From positions 7,750,001-7,814,000 of the forward strand of contig NC_135259.1 in assembly GCF_964204865.1 (NCBI RefSeq): a stretch of DNA of 64,000 nt, in the 5' to 3' direction. This DNA comes from Styela clava. Its lineage: Eukaryota. Under the pieces are notes generated by a model, which ran no database searches, was not told the DNA's origin, and saw only the letters and a list, made by a program, of their open reading frames with translations. Positions 41,442 to 51,199 of this stretch are shown here, one piece after another; positions within the stretch are counted from its first letter, which is position 1; each line of letters opens with the position of its first letter. Position numbers and translations under genes: made by a program.

Positions 41442-41912
41442 GTGTGAATATTGATGAAACGCTGAATTTATCAACATAAATTTTGATTAAGAAAAAAAAT
41501 TTGGCATAAAATAAAGTGAATTAGATTTACGTATTCATTTAACAACATAAAGTTTGTTCAACATTAAAAAATGATCGGAAATGTATTTTAATTTACGGCC
41601 ACCTGGAGTCATCACCTTAATCACCCATCAAGTTTCAACTATTCTTTGCTATTACGTGGCCTTATGGTATAGTACCTTTTCACATCAAATTGAATATAAA
41701 TAAGTTCAAATGTTCAAAAAATGCAGCATTGTTTGTATCGCGTATCATTCTGTAGTTATAAGTATAACTGAATTTCAAGTACATCGAATTTGAATGGACA
41801 TAACGCATCACTTCCTGACTCTTCTTCTCTTGGCATGTTTTTGTTCGTCTCGGCGTCGTGTAATATCCCTTTGCTATTTTGTGTATGTTTTATTTTATTT
41901 AGGCATGTCTGG

Positions 41913-44900
41913 TTACACAATGTTATTGTTTGTATCTTCTTTCTTCTTTTTTGGAGTTTGAATGTGAAATTGTTTTTGATTTACCGCCACTCGGACGAGT
42001 TTTTTTTTAGTTGTTTTGATTAATGTCGGCCTTGGTTCAGCATCATGATCATTTTCTTCTTCTTGTATTTTTCCTACGTTTCTCTGAATTATTTTTTAAC
42101 AAAATGAATATAAAAATAAACTAAATTCTAGCATGGAATCAAATTAAGCTTTGAATTACTTTGAAAATGTAAAATTTTGGATTGCAATACTAAATAAACG
42201 ATTGTATTTATTGCACCAATCTGCTGTTGTGTTTGAGGGTAACTGCTCGAGGTAAAAATGAATTATAAATTTTATTCTACATTGTGGCTTTAATATAAAA
42301 CCAGAAAATACTCTCATGTTATTATAACCTGAAACACTGGATCATGTGTGTCAATCATGTCCATGGGATTTTCTTCTCCGTTATTCACAGCTTTTTGAAC
42401 CTTTTCCATTAATTTTGCTATTCCTTCTGGCATTCCACTCTTCCCGTCGCGGTGAACAACCGGTGGTTTTGGCTTGCTCGGATGTTGCTTTGGAAAAGTA
42501 TATGTTTGATATTAGATAGATATTTATTTTTGACTTAACATTATGCTTGGAATTCATTTTTTCCATATAGAGAAGACACGACATATTTATATATATATAT
42601 AGGGGGAATGAGTGTGGTTTATGATGTATTAGGTATAGGAACAAAAACAAACAGATAGATTTTGCGCAAACGTAACGGCGCAATTCACAAATTAACAAAT
42701 AAATCGGAGTAAACCTAGGTTGGATACAATGCAGATGTTCCGAGGACATGAATTTTTTTTATGATTTTTCCTCGGGAATAAACATAAATATTTTTGTTCT
42801 TGTTTATATAACCTAACTAACCTACATTATAGAAAACAAAAACAGTTTTGAATAATAGTTATTTAAATTCAACCTTTAATTCAGCCATCTTGCGTTCATA
42901 TTCAGCTTGATTTTGCCTTTGTCTTCTGGCTTTTTCCTTCATTACTTCTTCGTGGCGTTGGGCCTTACTTCGAATCATATTTTCTGTCATCTTTTTCCTT
43001 GAAACGACAAAAAAAATATTTACTGAGCGGAACTTTGAAATCGCAAGAATAATTTAAAATAATATTTTTGTGTAGAATTGGCTAGGTTTGTCATCATGTC
43101 TTTTCCGAGAACTCAAGGCAAACGAGACAATAACTTGATTCCAGTCGTAAACTTTATACGAATCAACTAGTTTTTACTACAAGTCCGTGGACTACTCCTA
43201 TATATCAAGTAACGATATCTGTGATTCATTCATATTCAAGTTGTTTTTTTTGAGTTTCGAATCATGCTTTCTTAGTTTTCACGTGGTGGTAGTGGATGCC
43301 AATATTTCCTTTTCTATTATAAAATACAAATATATGTGTCTTACTTCCAATATACATCTCTTGTGCGAGCATCAACAACGGGATCTCCTGAAGTGACTTC
43401 AAACCACCAGTTCCATTGAAAGTATGGCTGTCTATATTTGTCAACAATTTTGCTTTCGACTGCATACGTTCCTGAGATAAAGATCGATTTTAAATATCAT
43501 AGCATAGCCTACCTATTATAATGTGTTATATTTTTTAAAAATAACTGTTTTTTACCGCAACTCAAATAGCGAGTATTTTATTTCTTGGTGATTTCGCGTG
43601 TCATATTTTTTCGCAAGTGATCATCGAAATATACCATCAACCGGTATGTTTACTGTAATATATAATTTACCTGGTATATTTGGAATTGCAAAATCAGGTG
43701 TTCGGAAGCTGTACTTCTTTGGAATGTCGGGATTTGAAAAATTTGGCGTTTTCTTCCCTGGCCAAGTGAACGTATAATGATCTAGAAAAATATCACATTT
43801 ATTACAATAAAGGGCGTAATGGATTTATTTTCAGGTAATTACATAAATTAGCATGCGATAATATTTGCCTATAAAATTATCTAAAAAGTGAAATATTAAA
43901 ATCGAAATCGTTAAATGTTTATGATTTGAAATGTTGGGAATAATATTATTAGGTTAAATATGGGACATGGTGTTCAATTATCTATTTAATGGTATGACGT
44001 AAATTTTTCTTTTGCTATCTCACTAAATGTGCATCCAGTGAGATGGGTTTTCACTCTTTATATCGTATTTCGTCTAATCTATGTTCAAAAAATATAACAA
44101 TGGGCTACTTACTTTCTCCTTTCTCAAGATGAGATTCGAAATGCTTTTCATCGGTGTAATATAGATATTCCGACGGGTTTAAGACGACCTGTTCGTAAAC
44201 AAAATATGAACATTTAATCAACATGCATTTATTGCATCATGATTTGAAAACGTCTGAAAGCGGTATCTGAGTGGAAAGTTGACAAGACGTAAGGCAAACA
44301 ATCATTTTTGTATGTAGTTATTTTTTAAATAACTATATTTGTGATTAATCACCCATAATTTACACTTTTGCAAGAAACCATCGAAGTGCTGACATTCAGA
44401 TGTGTGAATAAATTTGACTATAGATGGTATGTTTTCGTTTGGTTTGGACATTTCAGTGTCCACAAAAAAAAGAATTTGATGTTGGCATTACTACAAGAAA
44501 TACACGTCAAAACAATCATATAGGAAACAATTTAGTTTTAGTGCGTTGTAAAAAGTCTGCATTTGTTATCTGTTATAGTTAAGCATCTCTTACACGTGCA
44601 AATGCGTACGCGTAATAAATTGAATTAATTAGTGCACATTTGGGAGGGATATGTAAAAATCTGCAGAAAAAGTAACACAATTAAATCAGCACTTCATGAT
44701 AATTGTATTCGTTGTTAACATATTTTGCGATCTTTATAAAAATCATATCTAAAAGCCTTTACGCAAGATTTACACAAGACTGACTTGAGATTAAAAAACC
44801 AGATAAATCAACATATTTATATGGGGAACTTAAAAATCAAATACCTCTATATCAATCTTAAAAGCGAAGTAGTGTCTAAAATGATTTCCTTCGTTTTCAT

Positions 44901-47900
44901 TAACCCATTTGGTTATATCGGGAGGAATCGTTTGTTTCAGAGGTTTTGGCAAACTCTGGTGTGCTCCATAAAAACCAGGGCAGTATTTTACATATGCTGT
45001 TGTATTTTTAGCCAGCACTTCATTGAGTGTAGGGATTCTTTTAACACCGTCTTCTAAAACTTCACTTGGGTCTAAAACTAAACGCGTATCAGTTCCTATT
45101 TGGTGTTTGCCATCTTTATTTATTACAAAGTCTCCACTTGCAGCTTGTTTTCTCAATTTCATCCAACCAAGCCGCATATCATTTCCCAATGCACCCATCA
45201 GTCTAACGTTTGGACGGGACATAATTAGTCTGATAAGCTCTTTATCACTGTGCTTGGGTGGACCTTTTTTGCGTAACGTGTATTTGATCCCGTTTACTTC
45301 CTTTACGATTCCTCCACATAATGCTTGCATTTTGTCGCAAGCCGATTTCGCTGCCGTCAGGTTTGGGTATGAATAATCGGAGTCGTCAATTCGGTCGTGC
45401 TTCTCAAGGGTCTTGTTGATATATGTTTCCCATCGGCAACGACGGATGTCAATATCATCTGAACCACGTATATAACTTAAAAGTTATACTTTTTGTTATG
45501 CAATAGTAATTTCATACAATCACCCAAGCACCCGGAAAGTGTTAGTAGAAAAAATAGCGATGCGATGAAGGAGCACTCGACTACAAATCATGGCGGCGCG
45601 GGCGGTTTAATCTAATCTCTAAAAAAATTTATATTGATTAATGTTTTTGTATCGAAGCAAATATTTACTCACTTGAAAATGCAAGTCGAATGAATAGTGA
45701 TGTGGACAAGGTTTTGAAACATCTGTGCACATGAACGCTGACTTGTGCGGCCTGAACTGTGAAAATTCTCCCGGACAATATCGCAAGTATGCATACTTTT
45801 CAGGCAAGATGTATCGGCGTCGTTCAGCTGACAATCTTTCGTCTCCATTTTCGTCGGGGGATACTGTAGGAGGTTTTGGCGCGGACGGGCCACTTATAAC
45901 CAAGTGTCTAGGAATGCTACCCCTCCTTAAACTATAATTCTCTTGTTTGTTTTCACGTTGAACTCCTGAGCACTCAGGAACAAGTTTGTCGCACAGGTCT
46001 TGTGCTTGTTTGAGATCATGCAACATTGAAAACCGTCGTTTTCTACCATCTGGACCAATTAAATTATCTTTTATAAGTGAAGATTTGCCGTCTTTTCGGA
46101 CGGTACCAGGCCACAGTGAAATATTTTGCGCTTCCTTTTTCTCTGTTAATTCAATGACGAAGTCCAGATACTTCCCGGGAAATTTCTCATAACGACACGG
46201 TCCTGTGAGGGTAGGTATAATGGTAAAGTGGGGTTTGATCGGAAGGGAGAAAAGATAAGTAAAGCAAACAGTTAATGATAATAAATGATGATGACAATAA
46301 ATGATGCATTACAAACAATACAAGCTACGAAATTATAATGAACAACAAAATTGCAGAAGTAGAAACAAAGCAAAAGAGAAATGTGAGTGGTGGATTACGG
46401 TTATCCAGGATCGGGTGGGAACAACGCGTTTGATTTACCTTAAATCGAAGAATAGTATTACTAGCCGCGGAGAAACATCGACACCAAGGTACAATTTTAA
46501 GATGACAAATTTGGATAGTTTGAGTGGATGCATGCAAATTTAATAAATTTAGTGCATAAAAAAGAAGGTTAGTAATCAAATAAGAGTTTTGCGATTTCAT
46601 TTGGCGCAAAGCAAACGAAGATTTGTTAATGGAAGCAAACAGGGTGCAATTATGACGTAGGTTTCTGTTCAACCATGGGGTTTGGACGTCAAAATCCAAC
46701 GACCATGTCCCATGGCTGAATAAGACTATTCACATGCAGATTATATATTAAGACTTTCTCGCAATTGCAAATACATACCTGGATACAGGTCTATATCCAT
46801 TGATGCCCTGCCATCAATATACAGCGTCAGTTTTGTTACTTGAATTCGTCTGATGTCAATAATTAATTTTGTATACATTGGAAAACGTTTTACTTCAAGT
46901 AACCGATATTGCAAATCTGATAACCCGTCAATATCTGCTCTTGTTTTTCTTGTGAGGTTTAGTTTGAAACTAAAAATAATTAATAGTTAATCAGACAACA
47001 ATTAGGTATTTTTTTTAGTTCATTCAATGTTTCTATAAAACTGGCAAAAGGGTTTCTTGTTCATGAAATTGTCATCTGTTTTCAGAAAAATCTATGCAAT
47101 TGAAGTCATTCAAATTTAACTAATCATTAAGATTGAAATGTCTAGAATTTTTTTATCTCGACAGATAGCAAGTGTATACTTATCTGGTAAACTTAACTTA
47201 AAATCTTCAACAATTGATAATTGTATTTTAAATCTACGAACTCGTCGAGATAAAAATATCATCTAACTGTTAACATGTAGCCTCATTTTTATTTAGTCCC
47301 ATTTTGTTTCGTTTTTTGAGAGAATACACAAAAAGAATACTATGTTGTTTTTGCTTTGTCTGACTAGACCAGGGGTTCCCAAACAAGGGTCGCGACCCCA
47401 AAGTGGGTCGGAGTGATAAGTAGGTGGGGTCGCAAACAGGTCATGAGGTCGGTGGGGTCGCTGAGGTATGGTGGAGGATGAATGTACAAAACATCTAAGA
47501 TTTGATAAATCTTGTTAAATTTAGCAGCTTGTACCATGTCTTACTGTAAAACAGGCATATAGGCATCGCTCTATGCCTATGCTATAGAAAATGTAGGTGC
47601 TTATTGCGACATCACTGTTTGGTTTCAGCTTATTTTACCTAATATCACCACATGACCAAACTCAAAAGTCCAGTGAAAGAAGCTCCGAAGTTTCATGAAG
47701 AAATTATATATAGACCTGGGGTCGCACTGGACACTTGAAAGTTGTCTTTGGTGTCGTCCTGAAAAAAGCTTGGGAAACCCTGGACTAGACTAACATTAAA
47801 TAACGTCAGCAGAATTTTAATTACATTAATTATGCAAAACTTTTCTTACGGATATTTATTTGGACTAAATTTCCACGGATGTAAATGCGGAATCATCATG

Positions 47901-50900
47901 TATCTCCCCACTTTCAGCGAAGAAGGAACGATCGTCATATTCCTGCAAAACGGTAGATAGTTTTTTTAATCAATAGAGTGCATATTTATTAAAAGATTAG
48001 ACTTTACACAATCAATTGATATTAATTAAATATAAAAGTAATATAACTCTTACCTATGTTGTATTCTGAATTCCATGTCGTTATCTTCACCTCCCCAACC
48101 CCAGAATCGGTTAGAGTGCCCGTTTGCCTTACGATATTGTGATGGCGTAATTCCTGTGACTCCTCCAAATTCAGTTCCATAATGAGGTTTATACTGAAAT
48201 TTGTCGATTGCTGGGACGATAAGAATTTGTATTTAAATGTCGGTTTGTTTACTGCGAGATTCGCTATCTTTTTGGTAAGCAAGTACATAATAAAATGTAG
48301 AACATCGATTTATTATACTCAGTTTTTATCATAACAATCTGTGCTTCTTTACATGCAGATGGCAGCACTTTTAAACCATCCAAGAAAACTCGGTACAAAT
48401 CAAATGCGTGAAGGATTACATAAAATGTGTTTATATTATTTGATAATGCTCACCAGGAGAGAGATGCCGTGGTTGATCAGCACACATATAAAAGTTTCTA
48501 TCGTTTTCAGGAATCATATCAACATCATGGAAAATTATACAATCGTAATCATCCAACTTCAATGCTTCTTCGAAAGCAGCATTCATGACTGTAGCTTTGT
48601 TGAATTGACCGTTATCAAACTAAAATAATTAGAATTTAGGAATAAAACTGTTGTTGTTTGAAGATTGCCCCAAGCCTTTACGTTCAGTGAAAATTCATGC
48701 GACTTTTTTGATAAATTGCTTTTGATAAAAACGGCCTTCAATTGTTGTCTGCAGTAATAATATAATAAATGATTGAACCTATTATCTATTTATTAATTAA
48801 TGTTAAATACTGGAAAAGATAAATGACTTGAATAACCTTTTTTATTCGATTTGTGTGTAAAAGAGAAAATTACGTTGCAAAAGATTTCCTGGTAATAGCC
48901 CTTAGGGAAATAGATTTATTTGAAATTCTGTACAAACTCAGATAGTTAAATAACTCATAGCAATATCACCTACAAAAATGAGGAAGGGATTAAACAACTT
49001 TGTACTTACCTGCTCTGCTACGTATATGCAGTAATGGATATGTTGTCTCATCAACATAGGATGTAAGTGATACAATAACGTTTTAAGATGTGCATCTCTG
49101 TCCTTGAACGGAATTATAACTGCTACCTTTTGCCTTGAAGAAATTACATATACAAGTCAAAAAAAGTAAACATCAGGGGTCGGATAGTATACTTCCTGTC
49201 TTTTTGCTTATTACAATACTTACAAAGCTATACATTCTTTCGGTGAATAACACCCTCCAATTGATAAACCTGGTCCAACATGTTTTGCAACTTCTTCCAT
49301 CGAAGGTGTAATATTGGGATTGCTCTTCATGTCACCAACTAAAATGAAAAACATAGTAATATAAATATATAGTAAGAGTGACCATAACAAAGGATATGGA
49401 TTTCTTTGCAAGAATGAAAGGTGTCACAATCACCTTTTTATATCAGTTTAAATTTTTAGGTTTTTACAAGGATTTTTTAAAGAAAGGTAAATTCTTCAGA
49501 TTGTTTAATACACGTACAGATTGAATATGTGTGTAACATATTGTAAGTACGGTTTAATAGCGTCATTATATTCTTGTAAGCAGCTTGGGCTTAACTATAC
49601 TATTCCCAAAATAATTTTAAAAACATAGTTCTATAAATAGTTTCATAAAAAGTTGTAGCTTTCAAATATAATATATAAAGTCATATTTTTATCCACACAC
49701 TTGAAGAATAAATGATATACAGCTCATCCTTATCTCACCCAGCTTTGGCGATCGTTTTTTACATTTCTCCAGAGATTTTTGTGATATCTTATCTTTCTCT
49801 TTATTTTCGGCAACTGCTTCGATTTGTCGCGTTACATCTACTTTTTTAACAATTTCTTTTTTAACAATTGGGCTTGTCGCAAGAAGAATTGAAGTACTGG
49901 TGATTGAAGTAATTGGTGTTTGTTTTTGTTGTTCAAGCTCTTGTTGTTGTTGTTGCGGCTGCTCTACTTTCTCTGTTTGTTCTTCCTCAATATGTGCTCG
50001 TTTTTCAAGTTTTGGAGGTTCTGCTTCTAGTTGAGTTCTATTAAAAATGAAGGTGTGATTGACATTGATTTTAGTCAATAATGGACCATCGGTACCACAT
50101 AAACAAAAAAAATTGAACCCAATTTTGTTCAGTAATGCGTTCAACTGGGGCATTTAACATGCTGGGTGCGCCAAACTAAGTAAGTAAGCTATTCGGAGCA
50201 CAAGTGATTACGGTTCATCTAAGCATAATTGCTTGTTACATTTTCAAAAAGCCGGATCCATAAGAGTAAAATTTACAGTGCTTTCCTCATTATGAAACAC
50301 CAAGACAACAGCAGTTCAAATTTCACATTACCTGTAACCAATTTTTTGTATTGCTGTATTTTAGGTTAACGTTGATATAACTGATGACAGAATTTTTTTT
50401 TTCGAAATTGAATATCAACATAGATAACGCCATGGTATTCTTTGAGAAGAATCATGTTTGTATAGCTAAATTACAGTTAAAATAAAAGTACGAACGTGAA
50501 TTAATGAATATTTAATTTAATTCCAGGAAAATGGATATTCTTTGCTATCGATGTCTTAAAGTTAGACAAGTTGACATAGCCCCGGGCATCGCAAAAACTT
50601 TGGTATTTGAATAATTCAACAAAAATACGTAAACAAATCGTCTGTACTCTTACGTGTTATGATGAAATTCGTATTCATTTAATGAATAAATCTGAGTTCA
50701 TCAGTATTACATTAATTAGCATTTCAAACCTGATAAAAAATTCTCTTGGCATTGCCTTACACCAACAGGTAGTGCAAAATTTGGTATTTATCTATGGTTG
50801 GCTGCAAAACACATATGCTGTCAAATTCATTTTGTTTTATGCTCAGGGCCATTGCATAATTTTCAAAAATCGATGATGAGTTCGTGCATACCAAAAAACA

Positions 50901-51199
50901 TATTTTTAGCATCTGAAGAAAATTTGAATGTATATGAAAATCACCGAATGAGTATGTAGTATTTCTTTTCTTTATATCGTCATCAAAAAATTACCATTAT
51001 TTTCGTTTTTGTATGCGGGAGAATGCCTTTTCACTCACCTCACAGATTTTTTTTCCGTAATGTAAACGGTGCATGTGAATAAAAGTACAATGAAGATAAG
51101 AATATTGAGACTACGTTTTCTTCCCCCTAGTCTTAATGAACGTGGACACAACAGCAATGCATTTCTGGCGCTTCTGCTTATTCTCTGTAGCAACGTCAT
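41913..51199 (-). CDS. GT7-family beta-1,4-galactosyltransferase-like type II membrane protein with long C-terminal extension; two predicted isoforms (~867 and ~895 aa)
   Basis: Exons (minus): 51199-51039 (cytoplasmic tail and TM), 50037-49739 (Q/E-rich stem), 49338-49224, 49133-49010 (KVAVIIPFKDR), 48619-48454 (FNKA...FHDVD), 48210-48054 (FGGV, WGWGGEDND), 47942-47850 (GRYMMIPH), 46969-46779 (DGLSDLQY...YTKLIIDI), then either 46202-45673 or 45458-44845, then 44188-44113, 43781-43671, 43471-43345, 42997-42874, 42487-42329, 42083-41913. All junction phases are compatible; the last three exons are less certain. Confidence 0.88.
44845..45458 (-). CDS. GT7 gene alternative exon 9b: PAN/apple-like 4-Cys module, variant B
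   Basis: TTCAG acceptor (phase 1), GAG|GTATTT donor (phase 0); RCRWETY...AKSACDKMQALCGGI...YTLRKKG...AYVKYCPG...HYFAFKIDIE. Confidence 0.8.
45673..46202 (-). CDS. GT7 gene alternative exon 9a: PAN/apple-like 4-Cys module, variant A
   Basis: CTCACAG acceptor (phase 1), GTGAGT donor (phase 0); PCRYEKF...AQDLCDKLVPECSGV...YSLRRG...AYLRYCPG...HYSFDLHFQ. Confidence 0.8.
47370..47782. mobile_element. hAT-type MITE in a GT7 gene intron
   Basis: TIRs CAGGGGTTCCCAAAC / GCTTGGGAAACCCTG; GGGGTCGC subterminal repeats; perfect 8-bp TSD GACTAGAC at 47362-47369 and 47783-47790. Confidence 0.9.

Follow-up and report, generated by a model that had tools for sequence, protein, structure and literature searches.

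A tunicate subfamily of GT7 glycosyltransferases, represented by Styela clava LOC120337292, with an altered sugar-binding pocket and a mutually exclusive exon in its C-terminal extension

The window analyzed, a stretch of 64,000 nucleotides of Styela clava contig NC_135259.1 (positions 7,750,001–7,814,000), contains on its minus strand the gene LOC120337292, whose protein record (XP_039260974.2) is annotated as ‘uncharacterized’. The gene has 15 coding exons per isoform, and both isoforms, of 867 aa (X2) and 895 aa (X1), are already present in RefSeq as uncharacterised proteins. A Pfam scan of 12 ORFs yielded significant matches in three, which represent adjoining exons matching Glyco_transf_7N (GT7N) or Glyco_transf_7C (GT7C) with E values of 1e-17 to 5e-20 per exon. 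GT-AG joints were found for all exons in contigs of five RNA-like runs from two studies (X5–X8 and X10), the RNA origin of which was deduced from these joints and the depth of which is no measure of expression; the listed pieces of one 3176-nt contig of X10 span exon 1 through the 3′ UTR. The spliced gene model was identical to database protein P0098 at 867 of 867 residues, which, together with the spliced contigs, ruled out an assembly error or a pseudogene. A protein stopping after the GT7 domain was also ruled out, as at least six further exons are joined downstream. The exons and key codons are as follows (window coordinates).

51039–51199, minus strand: exon 1, which holds the start codon and encodes a putative cytoplasmic tail and hydrophobic anchor (type II membrane topology predicted; joint 50037/51039 in X5, X8 and X10; model helix 27–58)
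49739–50037, minus strand: exon 2, low-complexity stem (splice joints; pLDDT <50 at residues 62–121)
49224–49338, minus strand: exon 3, start of the GT7 domain, with the subfamily-specific Cys183 (joints, subfamily alignment)
49010–49133, minus strand: exon 4, PFKDR nucleotide-binding motif and subfamily-specific Cys227 (PF13733; joints, alignment)
48454–48619, minus strand: exon 5, Lys241 (bovine Arg228 site) and HDVD with the DVD metal motif at 265–267 (Pfam, joints, alignment)
48054–48210, minus strand: exon 6, YGTEFGGV and WGWGGEDND (ORF 48050–48232, Pfam, joints, alignment)
48170–48172, minus strand: codon of Glu302, the bovine Tyr289 site (sequence and alignment)
48080–48085, minus strand: Asp331 (catalytic base site, bovine 318) and Asn332 (bovine Asp319 site) (sequence and alignment)
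47850–47942, minus strand: exon 7, Met357 and His360 of the metal loop (GRYMMIPH) and the H-x-HPW-x-F loop, ending within the codon of Pro372, the bovine Arg359 site (joints, alignment)
46779–46969, minus strand: exon 8, end of the GT7 domain and first strands of the extension (joints, model)
45673–46202, minus strand: exon 9a, alternative exon of the Cys module in the 867-aa isoform, RefSeq X2 (joints 46778/46201 and 45671/44186; P0098)
44845–45458, minus strand: exon 9b, mutually exclusive paralogous exon of the 895-aa isoform, RefSeq X1 (joints 46779/45458 and 44843/44186; P0264)
44113–44188, minus strand: exon 10, extension, beta-sandwich (joints)
43671–43781, minus strand: exon 11, extension, beta-sandwich (joints)
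43345–43471, minus strand: exon 12, with the conserved beta-sandwich strands PG-x-Y and W-x-WWF (joints)
42874–42997, minus strand: exon 13, long predicted helix (joints, model)
42329–42487, minus strand: exon 14 (joints)
41453–42083, minus strand: exon 15, disordered tail, with the stop codon at 41913–41915 and a 3′ UTR to ~41453 (joints, model)

In intron 7, many contigs whose flanking sequences are unrelated match an interspersed repeat (47360–47790), which probably represents a small mobile element.

Exon 6 is flanked by AG and GT, and its two motifs share one minus-strand reading frame. The phmmer alignment to bovine and human beta4GalT1 (E 4e-73, ~250 bits) was gapless across the stretch between the DxD exon and the metal His. 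In it, Glu302 falls on the Tyr of YVQYFGGV and Asn332 on the middle Asp of GEDDD, and DVD, Glu330, Asp331, Met357 and His360 are kept. Bovine numbering follows the sequence-only reading of this DNA and PMC7185993, and human numbering is offset from it by four (PMC3436570). That reading had proposed Glu at the 289-equivalent and Asn at the 319-equivalent, with the DVD motif, the catalytic Asp and M-x-x-H retained, and the gapless alignment and intact codons in the contigs bear it out, HDVD lying in exon 5 and GRYMMIPH in exon 7. It had also considered that a different residue might occupy position 289; the sequence alignment places Glu302 there, and the structural match described below is without residue-level pairing. 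Contigs of X5 and X8 span 48053–48210 with one differing letter each, and the sole difference listed in exon 6, at 48158 (X5, X8 and X10), is synonymous, falling on the third base of Val306; the codons of Glu302 and Asn332 are intact in spliced contigs and thus are not assembly errors. A further difference in contigs of X5, X8 and X10, at 47889, changes Pro359 to Gln inside the M-x-x-H loop, a site that is variable in the subfamily.

The same alignment revealed both kept and altered positions elsewhere in the pocket. The acceptor-pocket residues Tyr299 (bovine Tyr286) and Phe373 (bovine Phe360) are kept, as are the Trp314, Glu317 and Asp318 sites; bovine Arg359 corresponds to Pro372, and the loop-locking residue Asp346/350 to Pro363. 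The register at Pro372 is supported by a shared phase-2 intron, which in the canonical Styela paralogue L034 interrupts the Arg codon preceding Phe and in this gene interrupts the Pro codon preceding Phe. Lys241 corresponds to the R228K mutation, and since Lys also occurs at this site in 79 of 205 other GT7s, it is not diagnostic.

In the AlphaFold model (mean pLDDT 76.7), a hydrophobic helix (27–58), the putative anchor, and a disordered stem precede the GT7 domain, which is modelled with confidence; a beta-rich extension spans about residues 412–701, and there is also a long helix. The GT7 domain matched the closed form of beta4GalT1 (1o0r) with a TM score of 0.95, an rmsd of 1.5 Å over ~270 columns and about 44% identity. 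The gene shows the following features of CAZy GT7: Glyco_transf_7N and 7C, DxD (D265-V-D267), xED (E330-D331), the metal ligand H360 and, in the model, the GT-A fold. The C-terminal extension of ~300 aa had no Pfam match, and in a Pfam scan of 21 members no family besides GT7 appeared in more than one. The extension of the relative P0104, folded alone, reached a pLDDT of 83.4, and a fold search with the extension returned weak, generic matches to Ig-like sandwiches (RhoGDI, TEAD and NPC2; E 5e-6 to 3e-3). A sequence search with the extension region of one paralogue, an insensitive search, found two Styela proteins only. A PAN/apple identity of the Cys module of exon 9 was not supported: none of the 21 members matched a PAN family in Pfam at E≤1, and hhalign against a small template set gave 0.8%, compared with up to 0.6% in 30 shuffles.

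Analysis of the splice joints revealed that exon 8 joins either 9a or 9b and that each joins exon 10. The joint from exon 8 to 9a was present in all five runs, that from exon 8 to 9b in X6 and X7, and that from 9b to exon 10 in X5–X8, whereas no joint between 9a and 9b was found among the splice joints listed for the contigs; with a phase-1 start and a phase-0 end in each exon, a transcript using the two together would be out of frame. Contigs running through the 9a–9b intron were also present in X5 and X8. Both isoforms have open reading frames, and 893 of the 895 residues of the 9b model agree with RefSeq X1. The ORF at 44830–45483 is therefore exon 9b, joined on both sides, and neither a separate gene nor a mere retained intron. 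The two exons are distant paralogues (13 of 38 residues identical around two Cys, E 3e-7), and their swap exchanges the Cys module within the extension. Phallusia (P0106 and P0266) and Clavelina (P0265 and P0267) each have one protein of the 9a type and one of the 9b type, with identical flanks on both sides in the Clavelina pair and on the upstream side in the Phallusia pair, P0106 being truncated. We read this as conservation of the 9a/9b switch, seen in Phallusia and Clavelina at the protein level, across three ascidian orders, to which we take Styela, Phallusia and Clavelina to belong.

Comparison with related proteins placed the gene in a subfamily of 26 rows, from which second isoforms (P0264 and P0267), the near-duplicate P0106 and two fragments without the motif were left out. 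Those with a species name are all from tunicates, namely Styela, Ciona (2), Clavelina (2 genes), Phallusia and Oikopleura, and the remaining rows are metagenome or assembly proteins without a species name. The phylogeny that had been proposed as a check, an unrooted tree of catalytic domains, sets the subfamily apart with support of 100/100; its 68 rows comprise 22 members, 21 chosen and 25 random others from 227 domains, with the motif columns included and no GalT7. The comparison set was drawn from the top search matches, for the profile search the best 150 of 9030, and is not a random GT7 sample. Judged from these top matches and an unrooted tree without GalT7, restriction of the subfamily to tunicates is likely rather than proven, and the distribution of the named members gives indirect support to the earlier suggestion of a lineage-specific enzyme.

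Styela also possesses GT7 genes of canonical appearance, L039 (Ile at 289, GEDDD) and L034 (Phe at 289, GEDDD), so LOC120337292 is additional to them. The GT7 set of this species is expanded, with 23 matches to exon 6 and clusters on C3, C6 and C16 (C3, C6, C16 and C1; L007, L009–L019), and EDND or EDMD also occurs at some of the loci (L010, L017 and L013). Three subfamily copies whose coding region has no introns lie at C17:15.064–15.084 Mb (L024–L026; ORFs of 731, 714 and 577 aa), one of them split by a frame change into ORFs of 577 and 163 aa, with Gly at the 289 site and Ser at the 319 site; they probably arose by retrocopying followed by tandem duplication. A second intron-containing subfamily gene, LOC120338849 (L038, P0005), lies at C1:7.775–7.783 Mb and has Arg at 289 and Asn at 319. 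In the odd GT7 genes L006 (C8:17.23 Mb), L036 and L037, the loop preceding GG is longer and the 289 site is Val; L036 and L037 also have two adjacent Cys in this loop.

We found no description of the subfamily or of its exon switch in the titles and abstracts of the mostly open-access literature. The Styela genome paper treats beta4GalT and tunic galactan, in a section that makes no mention of these proteins (PMC7540406, section 21), and the published notochord Ci-beta4GalT and Od-beta4-GalT (PMC3812116, PMC3034685), to which no sequence could be matched, may or may not belong to the subfamily.

Across the subfamily, all 22 aligned members share D265, V266, D267, W327, E330, D331 and D333, and 21 of them also have H360, a pattern giving indirect support to the proposal of an active enzyme. 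Other residues are specific to the subfamily: G300 (22/22), T301 (20/22), C183 and C227 (19 each, with three gaps), H320 (17/22), and H362-P363-W364 with F366 (16–20 of 22). The resulting loops are YGT-x-FGG and H-x-HPW, and Arg359 is absent. The idea of a changed pocket thus gains indirect support beyond the two residues first noticed, from Arg359 to Pro, Gly/Thr before the 289 site and the rebuilt long loop.

The 289 site varied widely among the 26 members (D8, E5, K4, I3, G2, S2, R1 and P1), being never Tyr or Leu, and the 319 site comprised N13, D4, S4, G3, T1 and A1. In other GT7s, by comparison, the 289 site was Leu in 89, Ile in 82 and Tyr in 21 of 205 aligned, and the 319 site was Asp in 198 of 205; none of the 195 other matches with a readable motif had D, E, K or R at 289. 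Oikopleura-type members combine Glu at 289 with the ordinary Asp319. On the branch that includes Oikopleura, Arg or Lys replaces the Gly just before the catalytic Glu-Asp (P0012, P0102, P0105, P0107, P0121, P0134 and P0153), suggesting a further acceptor change there. It could be argued that Glu289 is itself a switch, the acidic residue reading a special C2 group of the donor such as a free amine or hydroxyl, as 13 of the 26 members are acidic here, including all four named ascidian orthologues (E, E, D and D) and Oikopleura, and both main branches of the subfamily tree include acidic members. However, the three other orthologue rows, P0268, P0269 and P0101, have Ile (one row) or Lys (two rows), paralogues have Lys, Arg, Gly or Ile, and the flanking YGT and FGG are unchanged, so that we regard such a switch, and with it the earlier proposal of Glu as the specific determinant, as improbable. 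Judged by the aligned members, both the 289 and 319 changes are marks of the subfamily. At 289 the tyrosine gate has disappeared without a Glu switch taking its place, and Glu is one among the several residues that the site tolerates in the absence of Tyr.

Taking the sequence evidence together, we favor, with somewhat better than even confidence, a member of a tunicate GT7 subfamily that is likely an active, metal-dependent inverting enzyme and likely catalyzes something other than ordinary transfer of galactose to GlcNAc. The product of LOC120337292 is very probably catalytically active, and its main reaction is probably not UDP-Gal:GlcNAc; a HexNAc donor falls a little short of an even chance. 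Given the kept catalytic core, the rebuilt sugar-binding pocket and the extra tail in two spliced forms, the product is likely a glycan other than the standard one. The kept Tyr286 and Phe360 sites, and Asp319 in four members, count against this reading, as does the inactivity of human D315A described below. The residues specific for the donor in GT-A enzymes, moreover, predict specificity poorly (PMC7948508).

Mechanistically, a Golgi-type enzyme would bind Mn and the UDP-sugar through DVD and His360, and Asp331 would take the proton from the acceptor hydroxyl, which would then attack in line. Where Asp or Glu replaces Tyr289, there may be room at the donor C2, as in Y289N/L/I mutants: Y289L admits GalNAc and R228K shifts Gal to Glc (PMC7185993), and human Y285L/N/I alter donor specificity (PMC11734692). 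Loss of the tyrosine gate would thus allow a bulkier C2 group, because Tyr-to-Leu/Asn/Ile mutants widen the donor range and Asp is about the size of Asn; the leading candidate donors would be UDP-GalNAc or UDP-GlcNAc, the Lys at the Arg228 site leaning weakly to the gluco configuration. Asp319 contacts the acceptor in beta4GalT1. The changes of Asp319 to Asn and Arg359 to Pro, with the HPW loop, would reshape the acceptor site, and since Asp319 and Arg359 are lost and a new loop is present, the acceptor is probably not plain terminal GlcNAc; human Arg355 bonds the N-acetyl carbonyl of the acceptor (PMC3436570). From its position and conservation, the extension, with its Cys module and Ig-like sandwich, is likely to choose the acceptor glycoconjugate or keep hold of it, as a selector that the 9a/9b swap would provide in two versions.

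A more conservative explanation is a beta-1,4-GalT or GalNAcT of ordinary type acting on GlcNAc, with the changes tolerated as drift or compensated and the extension serving only localisation or complex formation. The TM score and identity to beta4GalT1, the kept Tyr286, Phe360, Trp314, Glu317 and Asp318 sites, and the variability at 289, which resembles relaxed constraint, are consistent with this, but neither Asp319 nor Arg359 remains, Gly300/Thr301 and HPW are fixed throughout the subfamily, and Styela has L039 and L034 besides; we consider it unlikely. Human D315A (bovine 319) abolishes activity (PMC11734692), so Asn at this site could lower rather than redirect activity, and this, with Pro363 at the loop-locking site and the large extra domain, would suit a weak or dead scaffold or chaperone that binds a glycan or partner enzyme, as COSMC does for T-synthase. 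Such a scaffold is very unlikely, as all 22 members, from Styela to Oikopleura, share DxD, the Glu-Asp base and Trp, and all but one of the 22 have the His, whereas DxD and xED are missing from COSMC itself (PMC7185993); D346A, furthermore, raised the affinity for UDP-Gal (PMC11734692).

Bolder readings concern the tunic. The subfamily may act as polymerase or primer transferase of a tunicate-specific polysaccharide of the tunic or house, in which case the choice of exon 9a or 9b would tune how acceptor or chain is handled; this is rather unlikely. The more specific proposal that it makes the 1,4-linked alpha-L-galactan listed among ascidian tunic structures (PMC3366676) is highly improbable, even if an inverting enzyme using NDP-beta-L-galactose would form alpha-L links and would need a rebuilt donor pocket and no N-acetyl contacts. 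Retention of the uridine-side motif, and the presence of several copies in Styela with little galactose in its tunic (PMC7540406, section 21), speak against such readings.

Tunicates produce unusual extracellular glycans, and we know of no enzyme assigned to them except cellulose synthase. This subfamily, which ranges from ascidians to Oikopleura and combines an added domain with a conserved swap of exons, is a concrete target testable in Ciona (LOC100181252 and LOC100179116). Donor specificity of beta4GalT1 is customarily altered through position 289, and the natural Asp, Glu, Lys, Arg, Gly and Ile in an intact core are ready-made candidates for new donor or acceptor specificities. The sequence-only reading had noticed neither the subfamily nor the extension at the C terminus, nor the mutually exclusive exon and its conservation.

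Comparison with known GT7 systems shows shared cores and distinct pockets. Bovine and human beta4GalT1 (PDB 1o0r, 1yro and 2ae7) share the GT-A fold, DVD, WGWGGED and M-x-x-H with LOC120337292, which differs by Glu for Tyr289, Asn for Asp319, Pro for Arg359 and Lys for Arg228, and adds the HPW loop, an extra Cys pair, the ~300-aa folded extension with its helix and the mutually exclusive exon; the marks of a beta4GalT1-type LacNAc synthase, an aromatic residue (Tyr) at 289 and Asp319 with Arg359, are thus absent. Invertebrate beta-1,4-GalNAc transferases (bre-4-like) share the catalytic core and the absence of Tyr at 289, and many have Lys at 228, but they have Ile or Leu at 289, keep GEDDD, are without such an extension and lie across the 100/100 branch; in the subfamily, Ile at 289 was found in 3 and Leu in none of 26 members, and no grouping with bre-4-like proteins was observed in the unrooted tree of 68 rows. 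By these comparisons LOC120337292 is a true GT7 member of neither the beta4GalT1 type nor the bre-4 type. Beta-1,4-galactosyltransferase 7 (PDB 4irq and 3lw6), also a GT7 enzyme, offers a parallel in its non-GlcNAc acceptor (xylose) and different long loop, but it is a much weaker match (98–121 bits versus ~250 bits for GalT1; TM 0.70–0.77), is not the closest relative by similarity and is absent from the tree. Annelid GT7 proteins (P0056 of Lamellibrachia, and P0030) likewise have GT7 fused to C-terminal Cys-rich modules, in their case three PAN-like repeats in a separate domain fusion; they differ in their canonical active site and in PAN repeats that do not match the tunicate module (probability 0.8%).
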